Below the pieces are notes generated by a model that made no database searches, was not told the DNA's origin, and worked only from the letters and a program-made list of their open reading frames with translations. Source: Gammaproteobacteria bacterium (GTDB taxonomy: Bacteria; Pseudomonadota; Gammaproteobacteria; Ga0077536). Taken from it: a stretch of 64,000 nucleotides of DNA. Positions within the stretch are counted from its first letter, which is position 1. Each line of letters begins with the position of its first letter. The stretch is from positions 4,289,161 to 4,353,160 of the forward strand of contig OZ244981.1 of NCBI GenBank assembly GCA_965223085.1, read 5' to 3'. Of the stretch, positions 9,457-64,000 are shown in pieces. Made by a program: the position numbers and the translations under genes.

Positions 9457-11520
9457 CTAGGCGGGGCCGAGCGCGGCAAGCGCTCCCAGATCGATGGATC
9501 CCGCCGCAATGAGCTGCTCTTGCCGCGTCGCAATACCACGTTGCAAACGCGCGTAACTCGACAATGCCCACAGCGGAAAGTAGCGGCTATAGCCATGATA
9601 GCGTAGGTAAAAGACACGCGGGAAACCCGTGCCGGTGTATGCGGCCTCGTCCCATTCGCCAGCCTCGTTTTGGGTTCTAAGGAGGTAGTCCACACCACGT
9701 TTTACGGCGCGTGAGTCGCCTTCGCCGACGGCCATAAGGCCGAGCAAAGCCCACGCTGTTTGCGACGCAGTGCTTGCTCCAACCCCGGCGAGCCTCGGCT
9801 CATCGTAAGTATTGCAGCTCTCGCCCCACCCGCCGTCTTCATTTTGAACGCGTTTTAGCCAGGCGATCGCGCGCAGCACGTAGGGTTCAGCGAGGTCCTC
9901 GCCGAGCACGCCCAAAGCGGCTAGCACACTCCAAGTACCGTAAATATAATTTACGCCCCAGCGACCGTACCACGCACCGTTATCTCTTTGGTCGCGCCGC
10001 AGAAATTCGAGCGCGCGGCGGATCGGTGGAAAGCTGCGATCGTAGCCGAGCATCGCCAGCATCTCGATGCAGCGCGCGGTCAGATCTGCCGTACCGGGAT
10101 CAACCAACGCACCGTGATCGGCAAACGGGATATTGTTTAAATACTCGTAATTATTTCCGATATCGAACGCCCCCCAGCTGCCGTCTTTGTTTTGCATGCC
10201 AAGGATCCAGTTAACGGCCTGATTAATACGCTTAACTTTATGCTCCTGCTCGTGACCTCCGGCGCGCAACAAGGCCATCAATACCATGCCGGTATCGTCG
10301 ACATCGGGATATTTATCGTTCTCGTACTGGAACGCCCAACCGCCCGGCACGAGGCCCGGCGCTTGATCGCACCAGTCACCGGGGACAAATATTTGTTGAT
10401 CAAATAACCATTCGACCGCACGTCGCACCTCTGGATGGGTCATCGTCGCGCCCGATTCAGTCAAAGCATTCAAACACAAGCACGTATCCCACACCGGCCC
10501 GACGCAGGGTTGACAGTACGTTTCTTCCTCGTTTTCTAACACCAGATCCTCTATCGCAGCGAGCGTACGCCGCAAATCACTGTCGTGCGGTTTAGCGCCC
10601 AACAATTTCAACGCCATCGCGGTATTCGCAATCGCCGGGAAAATAGCGCCTATGCCACCTTTTCCTTGGGCGTGCGCGCGCATCCATTTTTCAGCGCGAC
10701 GCACCGCTTGCGCACGCATGAATCGCGGCATTATCGGGTCGATCGTTTTCAATATTCGGTCGATGAGCAGAAATGCATTGGCAATGGGTTTGCCTCGCTT
10801 GAAGTGATCGAGGTGCTTCAAGTGTTCGGGATCAGTGCAAAACAGTTCGCCTATGCCCCGTTCCGCTGGTATTTTGCGCACTGGTCGATGCGCAAAAATA
10901 ATTAACAGCGGAACAATCACGCAGCGGGACCAATAGGAAACCTTGCTCAGGTTAAAAAACCACCATTTAGGCAGAAACATGATTTCCAGCGGCATCGCTG
11001 GCACCGTGCGCCACGGCAGTTGGCCAAAAATGGCTAAGGTGATGCGCGTAAAAACATTAACGCTTTCCGCGCCACCGTTCTCTAACACCCATTGCCGCGC
11101 CCGTGTCATATGCGGCGCTTGCGGATCGTCGCCCGCGAGTTTTAGCGCAAAATAGGTCTTTACGGTGGCACTCATGTCGCCCGCTCCACCGCAATACAGC
11201 GCCCAACTGCCGTTATCTTGTTGCCGCGCACGAAGATAGTTTGCGATCCGAGCCTCGCGTTCGGCATCGACAGTTCCCATAAAGTAGTGCAGAAATAGAT
11301 ATTCAGCAGGGATGGTCGTATCCGCCTCTAAATCAAAACGCCAGTGTCCATCCTCTGCTTGGCGCGACAGCAATGCTTGCGTGGCGCGTGCTAGTGCGGT
11401 TTCAACGGGGTTGCTGACCGGCTCGAGATAGTGAATGGTCGGCTGGCGAAGTACATCAATGTCGAGTTCTTCACCTGCGCCGACAGATGTCTGCGCGACA
11501 ATTTGATTTCGTTCGTTCAT
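9457..11520 (-). CDS. shc: squalene-hopene cyclase
   Basis: 687 aa with multiple QW repeats (QxxxGxW), the catalytic DVDDTGM (DxDD) motif and GGWGES near the C-terminus. Confidence 0.9.
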   Translation of the reverse strand: MNERNQIVAQTSVGAGEELDIDVLRQPTIHYLEPVSNPVETALARATQALLSRQAEDGHWRFDLEADTTIPAEYLFLHYFMGTVDAEREARIANYLRARQQDNGSWALYCGGAGDMSATVKTYFALKLAGDDPQAPHMTRARQWVLENGGAESVNVFTRITLAIFGQLPWRTVPAMPLEIMFLPKWWFFNLSKVSYWSRCVIVPLLIIFAHRPVRKIPAERGIGELFCTDPEHLKHLDHFKRGKPIANAFLLIDRILKTIDPIMPRFMRAQAVRRAEKWMRAHAQGKGGIGAIFPAIANTAMALKLLGAKPHDSDLRRTLAAIEDLVLENEEETYCQPCVGPVWDTCLCLNALTESGATMTHPEVRRAVEWLFDQQIFVPGDWCDQAPGLVPGGWAFQYENDKYPDVDDTGMVLMALLRAGGHEQEHKVKRINQAVNWILGMQNKDGSWGAFDIGNNYEYLNNIPFADHGALVDPGTADLTARCIEMLAMLGYDRSFPPIRRALEFLRRDQRDNGAWYGRWGVNYIYGTWSVLAALGVLGEDLAEPYVLRAIAWLKRVQNEDGGWGESCNTYDEPRLAGVGASTASQTAWALLGLMAVGEGDSRAVKRGVDYLLRTQNEAGEWDEAAYTGTGFPRVFYLRYHGYSRYFPLWALSSYARLQRGIATRQEQLIAAGSIDLGALAALGPA

Positions 11521-21521: not shown

Positions 21522-22715
21522 CTAAGCGCGAGGCACAGCGCGGCGTTTGAGTTGCTGTGAAACCAAGCCCCCGAGCGCGAGCGATAGCAATGCCAGGGTG
21601 CCCGGCTCCGGGATCTTCGCAGCCACGATCGCCTCACTGAGAAGCAAATGGGTGCGGCTGCTAGGGTGGAGTCCGTCCCAAAACATGAAATCATTCGGGT
21701 CTAGCCCCGCCGCAGAACACAAGTCCGTGAATCAGGCATCGAGACATGGACCAACGCCACCCGGAAAACCCGCCCCGACGGGGTCGGCCAAGACCCTCGC
21801 GCCGAGATCACCGAGCAAAGCATAGGTGTCGAGCAACATGATATCGATGCCGAGCGTAGCGCGTAACTCGGCGATCGTGAGTTCGAGTGCGTTGTTATAC
21901 GCTGCGGCGCCATCAGACAACTCCGGCGCACGTCCGCTGAAAAAACCAAACGGCGTTAAACCGATGTCGGGAATATTCGGCACTAAAAACTCGGTGGCAC
22001 CAAAACCGGCTAGCGTCTCGATAGCTTCGCGTACTTTGGTAACCGCCGCTCCCGCAAGCTGTGGTGCGGTGCTGCCTTGTTCGTCGGCGAAGACCAGATC
22101 ATTCGCGCCCGCCCACACGACGTGCCAGGCCGTTGCCGAGGCACTGCCGCCGCTCAATAAACTATATAACTCAACTTGCTGCTGAAGGCCGGGAAACCCG
22201 GGGGCACCTAGGAAACGATCGTTCGTGTTGAAGGAATCACCGCCGCCACCGACACCCGGCGGGAATGGATAGGAATTCGCATACGCCCCACCGACTGCAA
22301 AATTATCGAATCCTCCGGTCAACGCCCCGCTCAGAAACGCGTTATTCACCGGGCCGGCGCCATAGCGCTGAGCGAGATGATCGACCCACACCGGCCCATT
22401 GGAAAAACGCTCTGCGTACGGGGGACTAGGCGGAATTCTTGGTGTATCGGGCGGCAAACCGAGGCTGTCAAACAGCGCGTCGCTAATGCCAAACATATTG
22501 CCTGTATCGGATAGGCTATCACCGAAAATGACCACTTCAAGCGGTGATCCGAGGCCGCCGATGGGAACGAGAAGGATGAGAAGGATCAACCCGCTGTGAA
22601 ATATCTTCGCAATCATAATGTGCTCCTCCGAATGCGTGAAGCAAGTTTGTTCTATTGTCGGATAATGCAAGGCACGAACAGTGCCAAGGGCTAATTCAAG
22701 TGAAAATTCCAGCAA
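21522..22715 (-). pseudogene. GDSL/SGNH lipase with C-terminal PEP-CTERM sorting signal, interrupted by in-frame TGA
   Basis: Signal peptide, then block I VVIFGDSLSDTGN. After an in-frame TGA at 21732..21734, the same frame continues with block V FWDGLHPSS and a PEP-CTERM tail IPEPGTLALLSLALGGLVSQQLKRR. Reading the minus strand by hand confirmed the frame is continuous (..GPCLDA*FTDLCSAAGLDPNDFMFWDGLHP..). Confidence 0.7.
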
Positions 22716-22803: not shown

Positions 22804-22903
22804 CGACGGGTGATGGCGGAGAGAGAGGGATTCGAACCCTCGAAGGGCGTCAACCCTTGCCGGTTTTCAAGACCGGTGCATTCAACCGCTCTGCCACCTC
22901 TCC
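22804..22903 (-). tRNA. tRNA-Ser (anticodon UGA)
   Basis: The reverse complement reads GGAGAGGTGGCAGAGCGGTTGAATGCACCGGTCTTGAAAACCGG...GGGTTCGAATCCCTCTCTCTCCGCCA. It is 90 nt with a long variable arm. Confidence 0.9.
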
Positions 22904-23283: not shown

Positions 23284-24903
23284 TTGGTTCGCACCGAAAT
23301 GCCTAGCTACGCGAAAATGACCGAACACCCAGCGCCACTCAAACGTGTTACCCACCCCTCACCGTTGCGCGACGAAACGGTCGCGATCATCGGGGGCTGC
23401 ATCATGGTGGTGGCCGCGATCGCGATCTACTTCGGCGAATTTCCGCGCGGACAGATGCTCATGTGGGGACTCGCGATGTTCGTTCTCTACGCATTGCAAG
23501 TTGCACTCAGCGTCGCGAGACACCGCCGTCCGCATATCGCAAGCGAGGGCGATACGCCACCGACGCTCGCGATCACCGCTATCGTACTAGTGAGTGCCGC
23601 CTGGGGACTAGGCATCGTTGCAGTCTTTCTAAAGCTCGGATTCGACGCGTCCGTGGCAGCACTACTGATCGGCTATGTTATCGTCATTTTTACCGTCTGC
23701 TGCTACCCCGCGTCGACGCTGGCAACCCTGGTGGGGAGTTGTCTCGTACTCGGCCCAGCGGCGCTTTTTTATCTCTTGAAAAGCCCCCTGCCGCCGCTAC
23801 CAATAGGTTTATTGGTCGTCGCGAGCATGCTCGCCGTGCTACTCAGCACCGACAAGCGGCGCCACATCCCGCAGACCTTGGCGATCTTGCAAGGTGAAAG
23901 TGAACAGATGACGAAACTATTGCACGAACGCAACGCTGAAATTGAGCACCATCGCGCTACCGCCAATGCCAACCAAGCAAAACTCGAAGAAATCGAACAC
24001 ACCTTGCAACACACCGTTGCCGAACTCGGGCTAGCAAAAGGAAAGGCGCAAGCAGTCTCGGCAACGCTCGAGCAAGTCTCACCTTATTGCCCCGTGACTG
24101 ATCTTTGCAATCGTCGCCACTTTGACCAGCGGCTAGATGCTGAATGGCGACGCACGGAACGTGAAAGACTACCACTCACGGTCCTTATCGTGGGCTTCGG
24201 TGATTTCGCGGAATTTGTGCGGGCGCGTGGCAGGCAGGCGAGCGATACCGTCCTCAAACGGTTCGCTGAGATGACGCAAACACTTGTTCGCCGCCCTCAC
24301 GACCTTGCCGCGCGCTACGACGATGCCCGCTTCGCATTACTTTTGCCCGGTTGCGACATCGCACACGGCAACGAAACCGCGGAGACATTGCGTGCCCTGG
24401 TCGAGCGGGCCGATATTTCCCACCCCGGCAAACATGGTCAGGAACGCCTCAGCGCACATATCGGCGTGGCGACCGTGCTCCCGCGGCGCAACGGCAACGT
24501 CGAGGCCCTGCGCGCGCAGGTAACATCTGCTTGCGAAGAAGCGCGCGAGACCGGCGGAAACAAAGTCGTCCGCTATCAGCCGTTGCAAAAATTTCGCGTG
24601 CAACACTGGGAGCGGGCCCACGATGGCCCCTTAAGCGAACAAAGCATGCTGCAAAAATTGCTCGAGTGGGACTATGACACCCGCCACGCGACCTTGGCCG
24701 CGGGCGAGACCGTCGCGCATGCACCCCATGAACTCGAGACCGTGTTCGCGCTTCTCACCGGGCAGCTGGAACTCGACGTCGATGGCCACACGAAAACCGT
24801 CAGCGGCGGCGATATCGTGTATGTCCCCCGCGGTGCCGGCGCAATCTTGCGCGTGCTCGGTGACGTGCCGGTTACAAAAATCACCGCGCATCGAGGCACC
24901 TAA
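23284..24903 (+). CDS. membrane protein with degenerate GGDEF domain and C-terminal cupin domain
   Basis: 539 aa with an N-terminal ~200-aa 6-TM region, a coiled coil, and a GGDEF-fold domain (NRRHFDQRLDAEWRR...LTVLIVGFGDFAEF...ARYDDARFALLLPGCD). The signature GG[DE]EF is replaced by YDDARF and the metal-binding Asp residues are lost. A cupin_2-like beta-barrel follows (HELETVFALLTGQLELDVDGHTKTVSGGDIVYVPRGAGA). Confidence 0.7.
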   Translation: MVRTEMPSYAKMTEHPAPLKRVTHPSPLRDETVAIIGGCIMVVAAIAIYFGEFPRGQMLMWGLAMFVLYALQVALSVARHRRPHIASEGDTPPTLAITAIVLVSAAWGLGIVAVFLKLGFDASVAALLIGYVIVIFTVCCYPASTLATLVGSCLVLGPAALFYLLKSPLPPLPIGLLVVASMLAVLLSTDKRRHIPQTLAILQGESEQMTKLLHERNAEIEHHRATANANQAKLEEIEHTLQHTVAELGLAKGKAQAVSATLEQVSPYCPVTDLCNRRHFDQRLDAEWRRTERERLPLTVLIVGFGDFAEFVRARGRQASDTVLKRFAEMTQTLVRRPHDLAARYDDARFALLLPGCDIAHGNETAETLRALVERADISHPGKHGQERLSAHIGVATVLPRRNGNVEALRAQVTSACEEARETGGNKVVRYQPLQKFRVQHWERAHDGPLSEQSMLQKLLEWDYDTRHATLAAGETVAHAPHELETVFALLTGQLELDVDGHTKTVSGGDIVYVPRGAGAILRVLGDVPVTKITAHRGT

Positions 24904-24978: not shown

Positions 24979-25656
24979 ATGTTTCGAACGCGCTTATTTG
25001 TCCTGTTCAATCTCGTCTTCCCACCATGTGTAGGCGCAGCCGGTGTCACCCTCGATAGCGAGCCGAAGCAATGGAGTTATGCCATTGGCTTACAGATCGG
25101 GCAATCGCTGGTTCGTCAGGGGGTGGAGATCGACCTGGATGCTTTTAGCCTCGCGGTCCGCGATGCAATAAACGGCGAAAAACCGCGTTTAACCGCCTCT
25201 GACATGCAACGCATCTTGTCCCAAGGCGAAGCACGCATCAACGCGAATTATAAGGAGCGCGCACAGCAAAACCTTAAAATTGGAAGGGAATTTCTGCGTG
25301 AGAACAAAAGCGCCGACGGCGTCGTGACCTTATCCAGTGGCCTGCAATACAAAGCGTTGCGCAAAGGTGCGGGAGCCCAACCACAACCCCACGATGCGGT
25401 CGTCGTGCACTATACCGGCACACTGGTCGACGGACGGGAATTCGATAGCTCCAAACGTCGCGGTGAAGCTGTTACTTTATCGCTGAACAAGGTGATAAAA
25501 GCATGGCAAGAGGCCATTCCGCTCATGCGAGTCGGCGCAAAATGGATGATTTACGCACCCGCCGAACTCGGCTATGGCGCCAAAGGCGCGGGTTCGATTA
25601 TCGGGCCAAACGAAGCACTGATTTTTGAAATCGAATTGCTCGACATCGCTAAATAA
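24979..25656 (+). CDS. fkpA: FKBP-type peptidyl-prolyl cis-trans isomerase (FkpA/Mip-like)
   Basis: 225 aa with a signal peptide, an N-terminal dimerisation helix and an FKBP domain (VVVHYTGTLVDGREFDSS...YAPAELGYG). Confidence 0.85.
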   Translation: MFRTRLFVLFNLVFPPCVGAAGVTLDSEPKQWSYAIGLQIGQSLVRQGVEIDLDAFSLAVRDAINGEKPRLTASDMQRILSQGEARINANYKERAQQNLKIGREFLRENKSADGVVTLSSGLQYKALRKGAGAQPQPHDAVVVHYTGTLVDGREFDSSKRRGEAVTLSLNKVIKAWQEAIPLMRVGAKWMIYAPAELGYGAKGAGSIIGPNEALIFEIELLDIAK

Positions 25657-25817: not shown

Positions 25818-26111
25818 GTGGTAACAGCGACACAAGTCATAGAAGTTGAACAAAAACCAGGTACCGATCCCTGGATTTTTAACGTAACGATCGCGGATTC
25901 CGCCGGCCAAACCGCTCATCGCGTCACGCTCACCGAGGCGTCATACCAAAAGCTCACCCAAGGGAAAATCTCGCCCGCTGAGTGTGTTGAGTCGGCGTTT
26001 AAGTTTTTGCTCGAACGCGAGACGAAATCGGACATTCTTAAGAGCTTCGACGTCAACGTGATTAACATGTACTTCCCCAGTTTTGAACGTGAGTTCGGCA
26101 ACTATATCTAG
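25818..26111 (+). CDS. hypothetical protein (97 aa)
   Basis: Intact ORF with lower GC than its neighbours and no recognisable motif. Preceded by an 18-bp perfect palindrome. Confidence 0.4.
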   Translation: MVTATQVIEVEQKPGTDPWIFNVTIADSAGQTAHRVTLTEASYQKLTQGKISPAECVESAFKFLLERETKSDILKSFDVNVINMYFPSFEREFGNYI

Positions 26112-42888: not shown

Positions 42889-43206
42889 GACGGGCGTTCT
42901 CGGTTGTAAATGCATGCTTAATTCCTCCCACAACAAACTTCTAACGAGCGCCTACTTGATCGCTGGGCGGTAATACTTGGCGCTCCATGTAAAGACCATT
43001 TTTACGCTACAATTTTAGCCGGACTGAGCGCTGCGTGCGGCGACCGCAGTGCTCCGTTGAAGGATACTAGCGTGCTGCCGGACATGAACAGAAACCCGAG
43101 CGCTGTACGTCGGAGATCGGCGACGAAACAAACTTAAGCACCGGACGATAAATTTTGCATGTTCCGCGTATTACAAGGCGCAAAAACCGTGCTGCCTACA
43201 AAAACG

Positions 43207-44286
43207 ATGCTCTCAAAAATTCCAGATAACCGTTCGACTAGATGGAAGTCGTTCGGCCGTCTCGTGCTCTGTTGCTGCCTCGTCGGTGTTGCGCACGCGC
43301 TACCGGCGGATGATTCGAAGTCGCCGTCTGAAACCTCCACGTTCACGTTTATGTTTGAAAACGATCTGTTCGGAGATAGAGATGAACAGTATACCAATGG
43401 GATTCAAATAGGGTGGTTGTCACCGGATTTGAAGCATTACGCGGAGGCGAGGCGACTTCCACGCTGGTTTCTACCCATCGTCGCAGCGATGCCGTTTATC
43501 AATACCCCAGGAAACCAACATAACGTGGGATTTAGCCTCGGGCAAAAAATCTATACACCACGTGACATCCAGTCTTTCTCCCTCATCCGGGAAGACCGCC
43601 CGTATGCGGGTTGGTTATACGCGGGACTCGCGTTCGTGAGCAAGAGCGCTGAACGTCTAGACACAATCGAAATCCAAGCGGGGGTTGTCGGTCCTTACGC
43701 GCAAGGTGAAGAAACGCAAAATTTTGTTCATAGCATTCGCGATCTCCTGACCGCGAAAGGGTGGGACAATCAGCTAGAGAACGAGCCCGGCTTCGCACTC
43801 ATATATGAACATAAGCGTCGCCCGTGGCGTAGTACGAACCCTAGCGGGTGGGGCTACGATGTCATCGTTCACGCCGGCGGTGCGGCAGGCAATGTGTTCA
43901 CCTACCTCAACGCGGGCGCTGAAGTCCGTGTCGGCTGGAACTTGCCGGGCGATTACGGCACCTCTGTTATTCGCCCAGGTGGTGACACGAACGCACCAAC
44001 CACAGTCGACGACCCGCGCTTAACCTCCAAGCATGATTTCGGCGTGCACATCTTCTCTGCACTCACGGGTCGCTACATGATCCGTGATATTTTTCTCGAT
44101 GGCAACACTTTTTCGAATAGCCACGATGTGGACAAACAGTCGCTCGTCGGAGACCTCATCGTCGGTGCCAGCTTTACCTACCGCCGAATCAAACTATCCT
44201 ATGCGCAGGTATTTCGCACCCGCGAGTTTGAGGGTCAAGCAGATAAGCACAATTTCGGCTCAGTAAGTATCTCTATTACTTTCTAG
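43207..44286 (+). CDS. outer-membrane beta-barrel protein, lipid A 3-O-deacylase LpxR-like family (DUF2219)
   Basis: Signal peptide, then the family-typical FENDLFGDRDEQYTNGIQIGW motif and a C-terminal aromatic residue (..SISITF). Confidence 0.65.
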   Translation: MLSKIPDNRSTRWKSFGRLVLCCCLVGVAHALPADDSKSPSETSTFTFMFENDLFGDRDEQYTNGIQIGWLSPDLKHYAEARRLPRWFLPIVAAMPFINTPGNQHNVGFSLGQKIYTPRDIQSFSLIREDRPYAGWLYAGLAFVSKSAERLDTIEIQAGVVGPYAQGEETQNFVHSIRDLLTAKGWDNQLENEPGFALIYEHKRRPWRSTNPSGWGYDVIVHAGGAAGNVFTYLNAGAEVRVGWNLPGDYGTSVIRPGGDTNAPTTVDDPRLTSKHDFGVHIFSALTGRYMIRDIFLDGNTFSNSHDVDKQSLVGDLIVGASFTYRRIKLSYAQVFRTREFEGQADKHNFGSVSISITF

Positions 44287-54027: not shown

Positions 54028-54879
54028 TTGATAAATATGAAATATAAAGCCCGTAAAAATATCGATAGCGAGATCATATTGCACGTAGATCTCGGCGGGC
54101 GGGCACTTCGATTCGAGTCCCCAGAAAGCTTCGCATTCGCCCTCTCAGCGGAGGCGACTGTAGCGAGCAGTGATATTGCAGCGATGTTCTCAACATCGAT
54201 TCGACAGTTGTGCACCGAGCTGCGGCGACTGCGTGCGCTCCGTACGCGGCTGTGGGGGACCGGCAACAAGCCACCGAGCGCAACCGAACTGTTGCATATA
54301 CAGCGCAACAGCAATGGTCTAGGTAGTGCTTGGGACAAAACGGTGTGGCGGCAAGTGTTTAGCACCTTGGCTCGCTTGACCGCTACCGAGTCGCCCTATT
54401 ACGACGTAGCAGTGAACCACTACCAGCGCTTCTTATGCGCTTGGGAGGCCGCCCTGCATTCAAGCCTCGCGCGACGTGAAATTCCCGAGAAACTTCATGC
54501 GCGGCTCGAGACCAGCGATATCGAAACCTGGGCAGAATCATTAACACCGACTTGGCAACGTTTGCGGCCACGGCAAATCCTGAGTTTGCCGCGCGCACAA
54601 GAATTCATCACCCCCATTCGACTGGCCGATCAAGCTTTCGTACTCGCCTACTACGGTGCATGGCGCTGGATCGAACCGCACGGGCGATACCATAAACTTC
54701 GGCGCGGACGCCACATTCTCGGCCGCGATGCTAGTGACGGGATAAAACTATCGGCGCGTTACCGACGCGTGTCGCGGCGTCACCTGCTTGTCGAGGTAAC
54801 GCCGACCGGTATCATCAGTTTGCGCGACTTATCGCGCCACGGCACATCAGTGCCGAAATCACTCGCTGTACATTTGTAG
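54028..54879 (+). CDS. FHA-domain protein with uncharacterised N-terminal domain
   Basis: 283 aa. The C-terminal ~90 aa form an FHA fold signature (HILGRDASDGIKL...VSRRHLLVEV...ISLRDLSRHGTSV). The N-terminal ~190 aa are helical and unassigned. Preceded by an AT-rich stretch (53940..54030). Confidence 0.6.
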   Translation: MINMKYKARKNIDSEIILHVDLGGRALRFESPESFAFALSAEATVASSDIAAMFSTSIRQLCTELRRLRALRTRLWGTGNKPPSATELLHIQRNSNGLGSAWDKTVWRQVFSTLARLTATESPYYDVAVNHYQRFLCAWEAALHSSLARREIPEKLHARLETSDIETWAESLTPTWQRLRPRQILSLPRAQEFITPIRLADQAFVLAYYGAWRWIEPHGRYHKLRRGRHILGRDASDGIKLSARYRRVSRRHLLVEVTPTGIISLRDLSRHGTSVPKSLAVHL

Positions 54880-55410: not shown

Positions 55411-58400
55411 CTAGCGATAGGCCCTAGCAAAACGCGAGCGCATAGCGCGTCGCGTCGTGCCGCGACCGATAAGCCTTGTACGCACACGTAGCCCGAGGTC
55501 CGTTGGCACCGGTTGCGCGAAATCGACCTCGCCATTAATAAGTGTCGCAATCAACTCGCCATCGACATAGGCGATTTGATTGCGCGGCGTGGCGGGGACT
55601 CGCGCTCCGGGAACCAATAGACCTTCGAGGTTTAAGGGATCGCACGCGCTGATAACGACGATGTCCTGATCACGCTCGCGCCGTCTTACCCGACGTAACG
55701 GCTCGAGTGCTTCGGGCGTGGCAAATTGCTCCCCCGATACGCCAGCAATAAATCGACCGCCACGGATCGCGCCGCTCGCTTCTAAACGTCGCAATGCCCA
55801 TAAGATTTCGCGCCATGAGGATAAATACGCCTCGCGTGCCAGCAAAGTTTTACACACGACTCCGTAGCGGCCGAGCAATCGACGGGCGATCGCTTCCGCA
55901 TCGCGTTCAGCATCGCCAACAGAACTGTCAGCCGGCAAGCCGCGTTGACGCGTGATAATCCCGTTCAAGAGCTCCCAACGTCCAGCATTTTCGATCACGT
56001 TAGCGGCTGTTGCCGGCGAACGCCGTCGGCCGGGCGCGTGGCGACGCTCACGCGTCGGCTTTATCAAAGCTCGGAGCCCAATAAAACTGTCGGCGGTGAC
56101 TAAACCCAGCCCGACTAACTCCGCAAGCGCCGCCTCACCGAGCGCGCGCGGAATATCTAAGGCGCTGATCAAATCATCGAAAAAAGCGGCACCATTACTG
56201 TGCAAATAAACATGCACGCGCCCCGCGACACCCTGTGGTTCGCCGTCATTATCCCAGGCGCGTGGCGTTCGCCATAAACCGATTTCATTGCGCGGTAAGA
56301 TCGCTATCGGGGTCGTGCCGATCGGCGCATGAGCACGTGTGCGCCGTGCCGATGGTAGCGATAATCGCGCCCATAACATGCGTCCCGTCGCGATCAATTG
56401 ATCAAGATGAGCAGGTGCAAAGTCCCGCACGCGACCGGGTAGCACATAACTTTCCCACGCGCTCGCTGCGATTTCGTAACCAGCCAATTGCACTAAGGCT
56501 GCATGGGTGGCTTCGACACCCACGCCACGATTAGCACCCGTGAGGCCGTGCCAGTCATGCAAAAAGCGCACAAAATCGACTCCCGAGACCGGTTCAATTT
56601 CGGCCCGTAGGCGCTTCAACGTGTAACGATGAATGCGCGCGAGCAAACCTCGGTCGCACCATTCCATGACCGTGGTCCCCGCGGTGAAGCGACCGCGGAG
56701 ACAAACACCGGCGGTCTCGAGCGCCACCAAGGCTTGTTCGAGAGCCGCAACCGGTAACGCCAACAGGGTCGCGAGCGCGCTCGCCGATACCGGGCCCAGT
56801 ACTTCTAAGTAACCCCGCACGAGCGCGTTAACGGCCGCCTCCGGCGGCGACTCGTGAGACGCCGACCACAGCCCACCGAGTTCCTCGTGACGTTCGGTCG
56901 CGAGCCAGAACCCGGCTCTTTCAGCTGGGTGGGCAATAAACTGCACGCGCCCTTGGGCACGCAAGGCGCCATACCATTCTTGTCCGTAGGCGGCATTTGC
57001 CGCCAGGGACGACGGCGAAATATCGGCCCGTTGCAATACGCTTGCGCCACGCGCACCGGCCGGCACCGCGCCTAAAATCAGCAAAGCGTCATGCAATTCG
57101 TCTGCCGAACGTGGTACGGGTGCAGTTTCTTCACGCACGCGCTCGATCGCGGCGGGATCCAAAGTCCCGAGGTCACTTGCTGTTGTCGGGTCGAGCCAAC
57201 GACGGGCTTGCACGGCGTGAGTGCGACGCTCTTCTAACGGCGCATCATCGAGAAACGCATAAGGATTAGCGTTCAAGACCGCCTGTGCGAACGGCGACGG
57301 TGCGGTTAAATCACGCGCATAGAGCGTTTTTTCACCCGCCGCGATCGCCCGTAATAAGTGCCGCAGTCCGTTAAGGTCCATCGCTTCATATAAGCAGTCG
57401 TTGATGGTTTGGCTCACTAAAGGATGATCGGGAATCTCGCGCTGGCCACGAATATTTTCGAGGCACGCGAGTTGATCCGGAAATACCACGCCCGCGAGGT
57501 CGTCTGCTTGCGTACGCAACAAGCGAGGCACGACTTTCTTGCCCGCACGAAAACGTTGAATCGCCAGCGCACAAGTTGCAACCCAACGCCACCGGATCGC
57601 GAACATCGGTGCATCGAGAAGCGCTTGCGTCAATACATCCTCAACCGTTTCCGGAGACAGAAAACGCCACACATCCTCCAAGGGAAAACTATGCACCGCG
57701 CCCAGGGATATCACGATCGCGTCCTCAACCGCGGCCGCTTGCAATTCGAAGTTAAAAGTACGGCAAAATCGTTTGCGCAACGCGAGCCCCCAGGCCCGAT
57801 TTAGGCGTGCGCCGAAGGGGCTGTGAATCACAAGCTGCATGCCACCAGACTCGTCGAAAAAACGCTCCATCACGAGAGTATCTTGCGTCGGGATTGTTCC
57901 CAAGGCACGCATACCACTCATAAAATAGTCGTAGATTTGTGCGGCAACTTCGCCACTACAAGTGGTCGCGCGCATCAGCCACGATACGATCGCCGCGCGC
58001 GGTGCATCTTGGGTCTCGGTACGGGTGACGAATTCGGATCGCAGGCGCGCAACCGCTTGCGATAATTCCATACTGCGCGCGGGCGCTTCTCCCAACCAAA
58101 AAGGCATGTTTGGTGTTTCACCGTTTGCATCGGCGACGCGCACTGCGCTCGCTTCGACCCGCAACACTCGCCAAGTCGTATTGCCCAACTGAAATACACT
58201 ACCCGGTAAACTTTCGATCGCGAAATCCTCATTTACCGTACCGACAAAGAGATTGCCCGGTTCTGCAATAACATCGTAATCAGCCGTGTCCGGGATCGCA
58301 CCGCCACAAGTCATCGCGGTCAGACGGGCGCCACGACGACCTCGTAGTACGTGATTTACCGCATCGTGGTGCACATACGCGGCGCGCCGCCCTTGCGCAA

Positions 58401-59778
58401 AGCTATAACCACGCGCCAACATCGTGACGACCGCATCGAAGTCTTTACGCGCCAGGTCGCGGTAACAATAAGCGCGCCGAAAACACGCGAAGAGCGCGTC
58501 GCTTGACCATTCTTGCGCCGCGACTTCGGCGACAATTTGCTGAGCCAATACATCAAGGTCCGCGTCCGCAATTTCAATGGCATCTAGCTCACCGCGTTGC
58601 GCCATGGCCAGCAACGCCGCACACTCGACCAGTTCATCGCGCGTTTGGGGAAACAAATGCCCCGCTGCGACCGCACCGACAGCGTGGCCCGAACGGCCAA
58701 CGCGCTGCAAAAACGTCGCCAGCGTACGGGTCGAACCCAATTGGCACACGAGATCGACCTCGCCGATGTCGATACCTAACTCCAGCGAGGCGGTCGCGAC
58801 CAATGCTTTTAGCGTGCCGCTTTTAAGGCGTTGCTCCGCGTCTAAGCGTCGTTCCTTCGACATGCTGCCGTGGTGCGAAGTAACAACGTCCTCGCCCAGA
58901 CGTTCGCTCAAGGCGCGCGCGACGCGCTCCGCCATGCGCCGGGTGTTGACAAAAACCAAGGTCGTGCGGTGTGCGGCGATGAGCGTCGCCATACGCGTGT
59001 AGATTTCCTGCGCGGATTCCGTCGGTAATACCGCTTCTAGCGGCGCGCTGGGTAGTTCGATCGCCAAACGCTGTGCGCGTCGGTGACCTTCATCGACAAT
59101 GGCACAATCTGCCACCGAGCCGGCGCCACCAAGCAGAAACGCCGCGATTTTATCGATCGGGCGCTGGGTCGCCGACAAGCCGATTCGAATGGGCTCCTGC
59201 AGCGTCAAGGCCGCTAATCGTTCTAAGGACAACGACAAATGCGCGCCCCGTTTAGAGCCCGCGAGGGCGTGTATTTCGTCGACAATCACAGTGCGCACGC
59301 GGTGTAACATTTCGCGGCCGCTGGCGCTGGTTAGAAGAATGTATAAAGATTCTGGGGTGGTCACTAAAATATGCGGTGGGCGGCGACGCATTAGCGCCCG
59401 CGCGCGCGCCGAGGTATCACCCGAACGGACCGCGACGCGGATCGCATGCGCCGGTGCGCCACGTGCGCTGAGGCACGCCTCGATGCCCGTCAAGGGTGTT
59501 TGCAGATTTTTCTCGATGTCGTTTCCGAGGGCCTTTAACGGTGAGACATACAAAACCTGTACGCCATCCGCGAGTGGCGCGGCGCCACTTTGGGCGACCA
59601 GATCATCGATAGCCGCAAGAAATGCTGCCAAAGTTTTGCCCGCGCCGGTGGGTGCTGCGACCAAGGTGTGGTGACCCCCTCGCAGCGCCTCCCAGGCCCG
59701 TACCTGGCAGGGCGTCGGCGCGGCAAAGCTGGCGTTAAACCAGGCTTGTACCGCGGGTTGAAATGCGCCTGTATTCAT
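55411..59778 (-). CDS. lhr: ATP-dependent DNA helicase Lhr (large helicase-related protein)
   Basis: 1455 aa with superfamily-2 helicase motifs (AAPTGAGKT, DEIH in VIVDEIHALAG, QLGSTRTLATFLQRVGRSGH), an Lhr-core WH/domain-4 region and a long C-terminal Lhr-CTD. Confidence 0.85.
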   Translation of the reverse strand: MNTGAFQPAVQAWFNASFAAPTPCQVRAWEALRGGHHTLVAAPTGAGKTLAAFLAAIDDLVAQSGAAPLADGVQVLYVSPLKALGNDIEKNLQTPLTGIEACLSARGAPAHAIRVAVRSGDTSARARALMRRRPPHILVTTPESLYILLTSASGREMLHRVRTVIVDEIHALAGSKRGAHLSLSLERLAALTLQEPIRIGLSATQRPIDKIAAFLLGGAGSVADCAIVDEGHRRAQRLAIELPSAPLEAVLPTESAQEIYTRMATLIAAHRTTLVFVNTRRMAERVARALSERLGEDVVTSHHGSMSKERRLDAEQRLKSGTLKALVATASLELGIDIGEVDLVCQLGSTRTLATFLQRVGRSGHAVGAVAAGHLFPQTRDELVECAALLAMAQRGELDAIEIADADLDVLAQQIVAEVAAQEWSSDALFACFRRAYCYRDLARKDFDAVVTMLARGYSFAQGRRAAYVHHDAVNHVLRGRRGARLTAMTCGGAIPDTADYDVIAEPGNLFVGTVNEDFAIESLPGSVFQLGNTTWRVLRVEASAVRVADANGETPNMPFWLGEAPARSMELSQAVARLRSEFVTRTETQDAPRAAIVSWLMRATTCSGEVAAQIYDYFMSGMRALGTIPTQDTLVMERFFDESGGMQLVIHSPFGARLNRAWGLALRKRFCRTFNFELQAAAVEDAIVISLGAVHSFPLEDVWRFLSPETVEDVLTQALLDAPMFAIRWRWVATCALAIQRFRAGKKVVPRLLRTQADDLAGVVFPDQLACLENIRGQREIPDHPLVSQTINDCLYEAMDLNGLRHLLRAIAAGEKTLYARDLTAPSPFAQAVLNANPYAFLDDAPLEERRTHAVQARRWLDPTTASDLGTLDPAAIERVREETAPVPRSADELHDALLILGAVPAGARGASVLQRADISPSSLAANAAYGQEWYGALRAQGRVQFIAHPAERAGFWLATERHEELGGLWSASHESPPEAAVNALVRGYLEVLGPVSASALATLLALPVAALEQALVALETAGVCLRGRFTAGTTVMEWCDRGLLARIHRYTLKRLRAEIEPVSGVDFVRFLHDWHGLTGANRGVGVEATHAALVQLAGYEIAASAWESYVLPGRVRDFAPAHLDQLIATGRMLWARLSLPSARRTRAHAPIGTTPIAILPRNEIGLWRTPRAWDNDGEPQGVAGRVHVYLHSNGAAFFDDLISALDIPRALGEAALAELVGLGLVTADSFIGLRALIKPTRERRHAPGRRRSPATAANVIENAGRWELLNGIITRQRGLPADSSVGDAERDAEAIARRLLGRYGVVCKTLLAREAYLSSWREILWALRRLEASGAIRGGRFIAGVSGEQFATPEALEPLRRVRRRERDQDIVVISACDPLNLEGLLVPGARVPATPRNQIAYVDGELIATLINGEVDFAQPVPTDLGLRVRTRLIGRGTTRRAMRSRFARAYR

Positions 59779-62589: not shown

Positions 62590-64000
62590 CTAGCCGGTGC
62601 GCGTTATCCTGCCGCAATATTGGCCGTCGACGGTTAAGAAGTCTGCCAAGGCGTCATGGTGCAGGGGTTTAGAAAATAAAAACCCCTGGGCTGAAGGACA
62701 GTGCATTTCACGTAAGCGATCGGCCTGCTCTGGGGTTTCCACGCCCTCAGCGATGACGTCCATACCCAACGTCGCACCTAGGGTAATAATCGCCGCGACG
62801 ATCGCGCCGCTGTCGTCCTTATCTCCCATGGTGGAAACAAAGGAACGATCGATTTTTAAAGAGTCATAGCGGAACCGTTGCAAATAACTTAGCGATGAAT
62901 AGCCAGTGCCGAAATCGTCGACGTGCAATTCAATGCCTAGATCGCGCAAATCCGTCAACGTGCTCATAACCAAGTCACCATGATCCATTACTACGCGCTC
63001 AGTTATTTCTAGCTTTACGGAACTCGGTTCGACGTTCGCATCTTCGAGCAAAGCAACCATGCGTTTTCCCATGTCGTCGGTGAGAAATAGTTTCCCAGGC
63101 ACATTGATGCTCATAGTTAACGACGGCGAAACGGGAAAGAGTTTCTGTAATTTCGCTAATTGATAGCACGCACGTTCTAAAACCCACCATCCGATCGGCA
63201 CCGCCAAGCTCGTTTCCTCTACGATGCCGATGAATTCCTCCGGCATAACCACCCCACGACTCGGATGAATCCAGCGTAGCAAAGCTTCGAAGCCGGAGAC
63301 TTGCCCAGACTCTATTGCGATGATCGGTTGGTAGAACAACTCAAATTCGCTTTTCTCTAGCGCACGCCGCAGATCGGTCTCCATACGATGCTGAAACATC
63401 GCTTGATCGTGCATATAAGTATCGAACACCGCGTAACCTGCGTGGCCCGAACTCTTGGCGCGATACATCGCGATATCCGCGTCACGCAACATTTCCTCTG
63501 GGGTTCGATAGTTTTCAGAACTAAGCGCGATACCAATGCTTGCCGAAGTGAATACCGCATGAGAATCAACTTCGATCTCGTGCGCTAAGGCCGCATGCAA
63601 ACGCTCGACGACGTAGACGGCATCGGAAGGCCCGCCGATGTCGTTTAACACGATCGCGAACTCGTCGCCGCCCAGCCTCGCGAGCGTGTCGCCAGGACGC
63701 AAACAGCTGTGAAGGCGAGTGGCGATTTGTGCCAATAACTCATCCCCAACCGCGTGTCCGAGGCTATCGTTGACGTGCTTGAATCGGTCTAGATCAAAAA
63801 ACAAGACCGCAAATAAACGCGATGGATCCCGTCGATAGCGACGTAACGCTAAGTCGAGCCGATCCAAGAATAATATACGGTTCGGCAAACCGGTCAAAGC
63901 ATCGTGCATTGCTTCATGCATCAATCGTGCTTCGGTTTGCTTGCGTCGAGTGATGTCGGTCATAGAACCGGCCATCCGCAAGACTTGACCGTTCTCGTCC
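62590..64000 (-). CDS. PAS-GGDEF-EAL signalling protein (diguanylate cyclase/phosphodiesterase), 5'-truncated by window edge
   Basis: Active-looking GGDEF (RLGGDEFAIVL) and EAL (EALLRW, DDFGTGYSSLSYL) domains. The reading frame stays open from 63981 to the window end (DENGQVLRMAGSMTDITRRKQTE, a PAS-domain C-terminus), so the N-terminus lies outside the window. Confidence 0.85.
   Translation of the reverse strand, partial: DENGQVLRMAGSMTDITRRKQTEARLMHEAMHDALTGLPNRILFLDRLDLALRRYRRDPSRLFAVLFFDLDRFKHVNDSLGHAVGDELLAQIATRLHSCLRPGDTLARLGGDEFAIVLNDIGGPSDAVYVVERLHAALAHEIEVDSHAVFTSASIGIALSSENYRTPEEMLRDADIAMYRAKSSGHAGYAVFDTYMHDQAMFQHRMETDLRRALEKSEFELFYQPIIAIESGQVSGFEALLRWIHPSRGVVMPEEFIGIVEETSLAVPIGWWVLERACYQLAKLQKLFPVSPSLTMSINVPGKLFLTDDMGKRMVALLEDANVEPSSVKLEITERVVMDHGDLVMSTLTDLRDLGIELHVDDFGTGYSSLSYLQRFRYDSLKIDRSFVSTMGDKDDSGAIVAAIITLGATLGMDVIAEGVETPEQADRLREMHCPSAQGFLFSKPLHHDALADFLTVDGQYCGRITRTG

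Follow-up and report, generated by a model that had tools for sequence, protein, structure and literature searches.

The window analysed here is a 64,000-nt stretch of contig OZ244981.1 from a genome assembly labelled Gammaproteobacteria bacterium (GCA_965223085.1; positions 4,289,161 to 4,353,160 of the forward strand), and our subject is one gene on its plus strand (23284..24903) that encodes a protein with, in this order, six transmembrane (TM) helices, a coiled-coil helix of about 75 residues, a GGDEF domain and a C-terminal cupin (Table 1). In databases this protein is misnamed as a cyclase: its catalytic site has decayed while its inhibitory site (I-site) has been kept, and it is most likely an uncharacterised receptor of cyclic diguanylate (c-di-GMP). 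The open reading frame (ORF) is uninterrupted and, as stated in a preliminary description of this DNA made from the sequence alone, comprises 539 codons when read from the TTG at 23284. The NCBI product (P0001) is 100% identical, has 534 residues and starts at ATG 23299; the alignment of orthologues begins at ATG 23317, which gives 528 residues. The true start codon is uncertain within these 11 codons, with either ATG more likely than the TTG, and residue numbers of features given below refer to the 539-residue form.

We located the TM segments as hydropathy peaks at residues 33-51, 59-77, 97-115, 122-140, 146-164 and 169-187, and a full-length AlphaFold2 model (built with 12 orthologues; mean predicted local distance difference test score, pLDDT, 75.6) contained the same six helices, which bears out the number proposed in the preliminary description. 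Since Lys and Arg residues are found on the N-terminal tail, in loop 2-3 and right after TM6, we assigned an N-in/C-in topology; the three remaining (periplasmic) loops are 4-7 residues long and the protein therefore has essentially no periplasmic domain. No Pfam match to this six-helix domain was found in any of the 12 orthologues or in P0170, a relative from the active branch described below. In the model, the helix after TM6 continues it without interruption and reaches about residue 265. Because 73% of the a/d positions of this helix are hydrophobic in one heptad register (compared with at most 45% in the others), we consider it to be a coiled coil, as had been suggested, and presumably one that forms a parallel dimer; Pfam coiled-coil matches over residues 188-266 were judged spurious. 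Across the GGDEF domain and the cupin barrel pLDDT was mostly 80-90.

Table 1 Features of the gene and its immediate neighbours, in window coordinates.
Feature	Position	Strand	Details
Whole ORF	23284..24903	+	528-539 aa by start codon
Six-helix TM domain, N-in/C-in	23380..23844	+	aa 33-187
Coiled-coil/signalling helix, continuous with TM6	23845..24081	+	aa 188-266
GGDEF-fold domain, catalytically degenerate	24091..24564	+	aa 270-427
EWRRTER, equivalent of WspR R198	24142..24162	+	aa 287-293
VGFGDFAEFVRARGRQASD, degenerate Mg/GTP-binding stretch	24190..24246	+	aa 303-321
RPHD, primary inhibitory-site RxxD	24292..24303	+	aa 337-340
DDARF replacing GG[DE]EF, dead active-site hairpin	24319..24333	+	aa 346-350
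Linker strand and helix YQPLQKFRVQHWERAHDGPLSEQSMLQKLLEW, N-terminal extension of cupin module	24574..24669	+	aa 431-462
Cupin beta-barrel, His/His/His metal ligands absent	24670..24900	+	aa 463-539
tRNA-Ser(tga)	22814..22903	-	Divergent, 380 nt upstream; neighbour, outside the unit
FkpA-like periplasmic FKBP prolyl isomerase	24979..25656	+	75 nt downstream
Conserved 97-aa ORF	25818..26111	+	Flanked by the FKBP and RNase D genes

Profile hidden Markov model (HMM) searches and structural modelling, which had been proposed as checks, both returned a GGDEF fold followed by a cupin. Specifically, the Pfam profile PF00990 matched residues 270-427 (E=2.9e-28; 99.1 bits, cut-off 23.8), covering positions 5-161 of the 161 in the profile, and TIGR00254 matched with 68.6 bits against a cut-off of 37.4. 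The closest solved protein by sequence was the diguanylate cyclase WspR (E~1e-21), and in Foldseek the AlphaFold2 model superposed on the isolated WspR GGDEF domain with template-modelling scores of 0.91-0.92 and a root-mean-square deviation of 1.5-1.6 Å. Pfam, the sequence match to WspR and the superposition thus agree that the middle domain has a GGDEF fold.

The HMMER alignment with WspR also made the catalytic site readable residue by residue. The RYGGEEF of WspR is RYDDARF in the window protein, the metal- and GTP-binding stretch corresponds to VGFGDFAEFVRARGRQASD, and a 20-residue stretch of WspR corresponds to IVGFGDFAEFVRARGRQASD; the replacement of GG[DE]EF by YDDARF and the altered Mg-binding region noticed in the preliminary description are both seen in this alignment. 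At the equivalents of WspR D209, D211, K214, N217 and H222 the window copy has Gly, Gly, Ala, Val and Arg, respectively. Its VGFGD thus carries Gly at both Asp positions of the DxD motif (PleD D327 / WspR D209), Ala and Val stand in for PleD K332 and N335, and the equivalent of PleD R446 is Gly (ARETGGN vs. AKNNGRN in WspR). Every catalytic or GTP-contacting residue tested is replaced except the equivalent of PleD D344, which supports the earlier description of the domain as probably catalytically dead. Since the DxD, the GTP-contacting Lys and Asn, the GGEEF and the R446 equivalents are all replaced in this comparison with WspR and PleD, we reject both an active and a non-canonical cyclase; no known mechanism would allow the window protein to act as a diguanylate cyclase.

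The preliminary description did not mention three features that bear on function, namely an intact I-site, the loss of the metal ligands of the cupin and the descent of the family. The I-site of WspR comprises R242 and D245 (PMC7288161). In the window protein the corresponding RxxD (RPHD) lies five residues before the active site (A-site), which is exactly the WspR spacing (RPHDLAARYDDARF vs. RSSDLAARYGGEEF in WspR), and the helix with the secondary I-site Arg is kept as EWRRTER (E192-W-R-R-S-L-R198 in WspR), the secondary Arg occupying the position of WspR R198 and PleD R313. We then compared 74 family sequences in an alignment anchored on WspR. The R198 equivalent, the RxxD Arg and the RxxD Asp were each present in 74/74 sequences, and the Glu, the Trp and two Arg of EWRRxxR were likewise invariant (74/74). 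Across the whole protein there were nine invariant positions, six of which fell within the two I-site motifs (E, W, R, R; R, D). The same sequences had a whole GGEEF in 3/74 cases and as many as 55 versions of the A-site pentapeptide, with an Asn at the N217 (PleD N335) equivalent in 3/74 and a Lys at the K214 (PleD K332) equivalent in 4/74. Because the c-di-GMP-contacting residues are strictly kept while the catalytic site drifts, the GGDEF domain would be expected still to bind c-di-GMP, and the strict purifying selection that this pattern suggests is our main argument for retained binding.

To what extent is the window protein typical of its relatives? A word-indexed search returned 12 full-length orthologues with 29-35% identity, every one of which came from uncultured Gammaproteobacteria or Chromatiales; where NCBI gives them a name, as it does for a few, it is 'diguanylate cyclase'. 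Scanning a single genome for each GTDB species added 31 further family loci (start codons of the proteins from loci were chosen by length), and in an exhaustive profile search the full-length clusters (at 50% identity) that share the C-terminal module numbered about 48. The fusion of GGDEF and cupin is hence conserved in relatives and, although uncommon, it is not unique as an architecture, which qualifies its earlier description as unusual. Several of the loci (L007, L009, L011, L021, L022 and L025) come from MAG records under the titles Klebsiella pneumoniae, Klebsiella sp., Enterobacteriaceae or Hydrogenophaga intermedia. Their synteny is that of bins titled 'Gammaproteobacteria bacterium', and the organism names in those titles are very probably mistaken.

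Two kinds of relative recovered by the profile search point to where the family came from. Proteins of about 430 residues (P0170, P0171, P0177, P0180 and P0186) combine a homologous six-TM domain and coiled coil with a canonical GGDEF domain (DIDYFKxYND, RxxD and GGEEF) and have no cupin. Three others (P0164, P0168 and P0176) have both a canonical GGEEF and a C-terminal cupin, in which the metal ligands are HxH..H (P0168), HxH only (P0176) or lack the first and third His (P0164). The Pfam scores of the GGDEF domain were 170-177 bits in P0168, P0170 and P0176, compared with 99 bits in the window protein. We predict that these 6TM-GGEEF and 6TM-GGEEF-cupin proteins are real cyclases and represent the ancestral state. 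Given that such canonical relatives exist and have higher GGDEF scores, we place the window family within a lineage of real membrane cyclases, as a derived branch that has degenerated twice over. A homologous gene for a multi-pass membrane protein lies directly upstream of P0168 and P0176 (L040 2..1051 and L041 1..324); by eye its product looks like a PutP-type sodium/solute symporter, and there could be a functional pairing of the two in the active branch.

The C-terminus was identified as a cupin by Pfam, by profile matches to solved structures and by Foldseek, in agreement with the preliminary description. PF07883 (Cupin_2) scored 32.4 bits in the window protein (cut-off 27.2) and matched 11/12 orthologues, and NCBIfam gave generic cupin matches only, below threshold. 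A profile of the C-terminal 110 residues matched dozens of PDB cupins, best of all YxaG quercetinase (E=1e-10), and others such as EutQ, gentisate dioxygenase and TM1112. When the C-terminal 116 residues were modelled alone (pLDDT 88; predicted template-modelling score, pTM, 0.80), cupins made up 50/50 of the matches listed by Foldseek; the best match among those listed was the metal-free cupin dimerisation domain of CENP-C, followed by small Mn/Fe cupins such as TM1459. The barrel is the same as in TM1459, XC5357/TcmJ-like proteins, TM1287 and CENP-C/Mif2 (E-values of 5e-7 to 1e-5 and template-modelling scores of 0.55-0.6), with 11-28% identity among the matches listed.

TM1459-type cupins bind Mn or Fe via His3Glu, whereas the window cupin, like CENP-C, has no metal site. 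Tested against the metal-cupin motif G(X)5HXH(X)3-4E(X)6G ... G(X)5PXG(X)2H(X)3N, the ligand columns of the window copy read A, H, (E at -1), A, and across the family His was found at the three ligand columns in 11/74, 6/74 and 2/74 sequences, with the acidic residue of motif 1 kept in 68/74. All metal ligands (HxH....[DE] and the third His) are present in P0168, in the repeats of a protein called P0244 and in the stand-alone cupin of locus L030, and alignment with these canonical relatives led us to reject a metal-binding cupin. Metal binding, which had been put forward as one role of the cupin, is therefore unlikely, since the set of three His ligands is missing from this cupin and from almost every other member of the family. 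The loss of these ligands makes a catalytic or metal-sensing role unlikely as well, and in the simplest reading the barrel is probably a dimerisation or partner-binding module. We also looked for a PilZ- or CuxR-like c-di-GMP motif (RxxxR with [DN]xSxxG) and rejected it, as a regular-expression search of the ORF was negative and only a loosely conserved [KR]xx[RH]W precedes the barrel.

The cupin module has a characteristic N-terminal extension, 'xHW..DG.L....KL...GY', and the barrel has few near-invariant residues other than Gly and Pro, namely one Trp, one Lys and one Asp. This module is also part of P0168, is repeated four times in tandem in P0244 and forms a stand-alone protein of 103 residues in one clade. 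P0244, a metagenomic protein of 443 residues in which each of the four modules has an intact HxH..H, is itself an unusual poly-cupin. Mean pairwise identity, which together with the window-vs-family figures is an alignment-dependent approximation, was 61.5% in the linker and helix before the barrel, 58% in the GGDEF domain, 54% in the coiled coil, 46% in the barrel and 27% in the six-TM domain. The latter is thus the least conserved part (17% identity for the window copy).

We next describe the surroundings of the gene. It had been placed directly downstream of tRNA-Ser, but the tRNA is on the minus strand and divergent from it, at the distance given in Table 1; further genes upstream on the opposite strand encode a GDSL lipase and a voltage-gated-type K+ channel. 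Apart from the tRNA, Rfam found nothing in the 380-nt upstream gap, whether the gathering threshold or E<=1 was applied, and on this basis we rejected a regulatory RNA there (e.g., a c-di-GMP riboswitch). GC content is flat (0.53-0.60) across 18-31 kb and, together with the ancestral downstream synteny, this led us to reject a genomic island at the tRNA. Given the flat GC, the full-length ORF and the syntenic orthologues, the gene is native and intact.

Downstream, we found neither a sigma-70 consensus promoter nor a terminator-like site between the gene and the FKBP gene, and by synteny and spacing the two are possibly co-transcribed. The 97-residue ORF that follows had no match in Pfam or NCBIfam. 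A counterpart with 61-74% identity occupies the same position in at least seven loci (L007, L010, L012, L013, L015, L017 and L031), and because it is kept in these related loci we regard it as a real, conserved and unnamed small protein. RNase D (minus strand) and the tail-specific protease Prc are encoded further downstream. The order GENE-FKBP-(orf97)-RNase D-Prc was found in about 27/33 family loci, which on their upstream side have AsnC-DUF2944-(rhomboid); many relatives have this DUF2944/rhomboid context, which the window lacks. A second clade (L028, L030 and L032-L035) has different flanks, with the order rhomboid, stand-alone canonical cupin, GENE. This stand-alone cupin (103 residues; L030 7989..8300) has HTH...H and the 'HW..DGPL...GY' module, and its close spacing suggests an operon. 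The contexts of distant members differ again (PutP-like symporter, patatin with GldG-like ABC, ChaC), and the FKBP/RNase D/Prc synteny therefore mostly reflects inheritance within one clade. Rhomboid is the sole neighbour common to the two clades that otherwise differ in context, and its adjacency together with the stand-alone cupin, both of which the window lacks, is the sole association that survived rearrangement; we treat it as a lead.

The preliminary description had further proposed that the protein is a receptor or effector of a local c-di-GMP network, comprising a PAS-GGDEF-EAL enzyme and a PilZ-like protein. The receptor half of this proposal agrees with the I-site residues invariant in 74/74 sequences, while the argument for a local network is weak. 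A GGDEF-EAL gene, the only other c-di-GMP gene of the window, is indeed present (62590..63981, minus strand; GGDEF 164 bits, EAL 227 bits), 38 kb away and running past the end of the window; no PAS domain is visible in the part within the window, the N-terminal part being outside. Pfam scans of 39 of the larger ORFs of the window found no PilZ domain. The only match to RxxxR..DxSxxG in a real ORF was in a protein of 283 residues with a C-terminal FHA domain (54028..54879, plus strand), and this may be what had been taken for PilZ-like. With the sole GGDEF-EAL gene at the window edge and no PilZ domain among those 39 ORFs, a local c-di-GMP module is not supported.

Several known proteins offer points of comparison. 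WspR of Pseudomonas aeruginosa (PA3702; PDB 3BRE/3I5A-C) shares the I-site layout, the RxxD spacing and the EWRRxxR with the window protein, but it is a soluble REC-GGDEF enzyme with GGEEF, whereas the window protein is membrane-anchored and has no receiver (REC) domain, a dead A-site and a C-terminal cupin. PelD of the same species is a membrane-anchored protein with a degenerate GGDEF domain in which c-di-GMP is bound at the RxxD (PMC7288161). The TM anchor, the dead GGDEF domain and the RxxD are all found in the window protein, in which binding may, by analogy, take place in the same way. In PelD, however, a GAF domain separates the TM region from the GGDEF domain and the gene is part of the pel operon, whereas the window protein has a coiled coil in that place, no GAF domain and a C-terminal cupin. 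Membership of the PelD family was thus ruled out, since GAF was not matched and the locus is not a pel operon; near the window gene there are no polysaccharide genes, its neighbours being tRNA-Ser, GDSL lipase, FKBP, RNase D and Prc. PopA, PssE of Listeria, CdgA of Bdellovibrio and SgmT have reportedly lost the A-site as well and use the RxxD to sense c-di-GMP. Their partner domains (REC, none or a histidine kinase) differ from those described here, and none of them has a cupin or this six-TM domain. The window protein would thus have a working principle like that of PelD, PopA and PssE, but with neither GAF nor REC and outside a polysaccharide operon it is not a member of those families.

LapD of Pseudomonas fluorescens is an inner-membrane dimer with a dead GGDEF domain, through which cytoplasmic c-di-GMP controls a protease. 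It binds c-di-GMP with a degenerate EAL domain and has a HAMP domain and a large periplasmic output domain, in contrast to the loops of 4-7 residues found here. The NCBIfam similarity of the window protein to LapD is weak and confined to the GGDEF domain, and a LapD-type receptor was ruled out as neither HAMP nor EAL was matched at a full-length E<=1 (Pfam/NCBIfam). In CuxR, an AraC regulator of Sinorhizobium meliloti, the cupin domain binds c-di-GMP (PMC10519070). The window protein has no AraC DNA-binding domain and no RxxxR before the barrel, and we take the resemblance as a lead. In literature mentioning both GGDEF and cupin, represented mostly by titles and abstracts, we found no description of a GGDEF-cupin fusion, and CuxR was the only link between c-di-GMP and a cupin that we came across in it.

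Considering that a complete WspR-type I-site is kept in a dead GGDEF domain, we favour the reading that the window protein is a c-di-GMP-binding receptor that acts through this site, and consider it probable, if well short of certain. We infer c-di-GMP binding, dimerisation and the role of the cupin, and these parts could fit together as follows. The six-helix inner-membrane anchor and the parallel coiled coil would hold two cytoplasmic, dead GGDEF domains in a putative parallel dimer. An intercalated dimer of the messenger, (c-di-GMP)2, would bridge the RxxD of one protomer and the R198 equivalent of the other, as in the product inhibition of WspR and PleD. Binding would then cross-link or re-orient the GGDEF domains and so shift the GGDEF-cupin units, and the cupin with its conserved linker may relay this positional change to a partner.

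A more specific version of this scheme, to which we assign a low probability, is that of a c-di-GMP-gated membrane adaptor: the dead GGDEF domain would read c-di-GMP and the pseudo-cupin with its linker would capture or release a partner, or else the pseudo-cupin would complete the c-di-GMP site in a CuxR-like manner. Candidate partners could be the stand-alone canonical cupin and the intramembrane rhomboid protease. If true, this would place LapD-like logic, in which the messenger controls a protease, within the membrane and tie it to envelope protein quality control (FkpA and Prc).

Several observations weigh against the receptor. The case for c-di-GMP binding is built on the conservation of the I-site, i.e., on indirect evidence from sequence, and the equivalent of PleD R390 is not conserved, so the site is WspR-like only. 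The full-length AlphaFold2 model is that of a monomer, with a pTM of 0.47. Distant members differ in context, which led us to reject a universal operon partner that would point to an output. Finally, no member of the family is more divergent than the window copy, which could be drifting: at equal divergence of Prc (64-69% identical) pairs that include it have 38.5% identity vs. 48.1% for other pairs, and near-invariant residues are replaced in it (D301G, G334H, F417E and G458D in P0001 numbering).

This divergence raises the question of whether the window copy is a decaying gene on its way to becoming a pseudogene without function, which we regard as very unlikely. It is the fastest-evolving member, it alone in the family has Gly at the second Asp of DxD (Asp in 72/74), other near-invariant residues have been replaced and the upstream DUF2944/rhomboid context has been lost. 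Nevertheless, the 1.6-kb ORF has stayed uninterrupted, the I-site and the EWRR, NRR, GD and P-x-G motifs are retained, and both cytoplasmic domains are modelled with confidence. Less probable still, to the point where we give it hardly any weight, is a non-canonical active cyclase or a sensor that detects GTP via the degenerate A-site as in PdeA/CC3396. Some variant motifs, e.g., AGDEF, are active (PMC3974145), and the PleD D344 equivalent is retained; yet the two Gly and two Glu of GGEEF, the Asp pair of DxD and the GTP-contacting Lys and Asn are replaced, and a pentapeptide with 55 versions in 74 sequences is hypervariable.

The protein may also do without nucleotide altogether. As a scaffold or anchor it would use the GGDEF fold and the conserved Arg and Asp only for protein contacts or folding, and would assemble a membrane complex regardless of c-di-GMP; in line with this, conservation is highest in the linker and the helix before the cupin rather than in the GGDEF domain, and many loci show synteny with envelope proteins (rhomboid, FkpA and Prc). 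We nonetheless think this unlikely, because the residues invariant in 74/74 sequences are the c-di-GMP contacts of WspR at identical spacing, which a random structural constraint would not single out while all catalytic residues decay. Somewhat less likely again is a small-molecule sensor in which the cupin binds an organic ligand as input and the dead GGDEF domain serves as a spacer or dimerisation domain. Small-ligand binding is common among cupins, the acidic residue of motif 1 is present in most of the family, and the HxH..H cupin of the active relatives could plausibly be a sensory input to the cyclase. The near-invariant residues of the barrel are, however, mostly Gly and Pro, hence no pocket signature is evident, and such a sensor would leave the invariant I-site unexplained.

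The receptor reading has consequences beyond this locus. Degenerate GGDEF proteins are routinely annotated 'diguanylate cyclase', which inflates counts of cyclases and hides receptors. An A-site that has decayed to 55 pentapeptides next to three I-site residues kept in every sequence is a signature that separates receptors from enzymes by sequence only. One membrane protein here combines a dead cyclase with a metal-less cupin, both of them pseudo-domains; if it truly binds c-di-GMP, its architecture would be new among receptors, and c-di-GMP may be linked to envelope or intramembrane proteolysis in a large group of uncultured freshwater/groundwater Gammaproteobacteria. As it stands, the reading corrects an annotation and should interest c-di-GMP specialists, and it holds no surprise in principle.

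Two further observations concern other genes of the window. The ORF of the GDSL lipase (21732..22715, minus strand) stops early, and the adjacent ORF in another frame (21522..21722, minus strand) supplies the GDSL block V (DGLHPS) that it lacks, together with a PEP-CTERM-like tail (PEPGTLALLSLALGGLV..KRR); the region 21522..22715 has the look of one gene broken by a frameshift, or by an error of sequencing, near 21722-21732. Elsewhere, a squalene-hopene cyclase (9457..11520, minus strand), the lipid-A deacylase LpxR (43159..44286, plus strand) and an Lhr-type helicase of 1455 residues (55411..59778, minus strand) help to mark the host as a hopanoid-making gammaproteobacterium.

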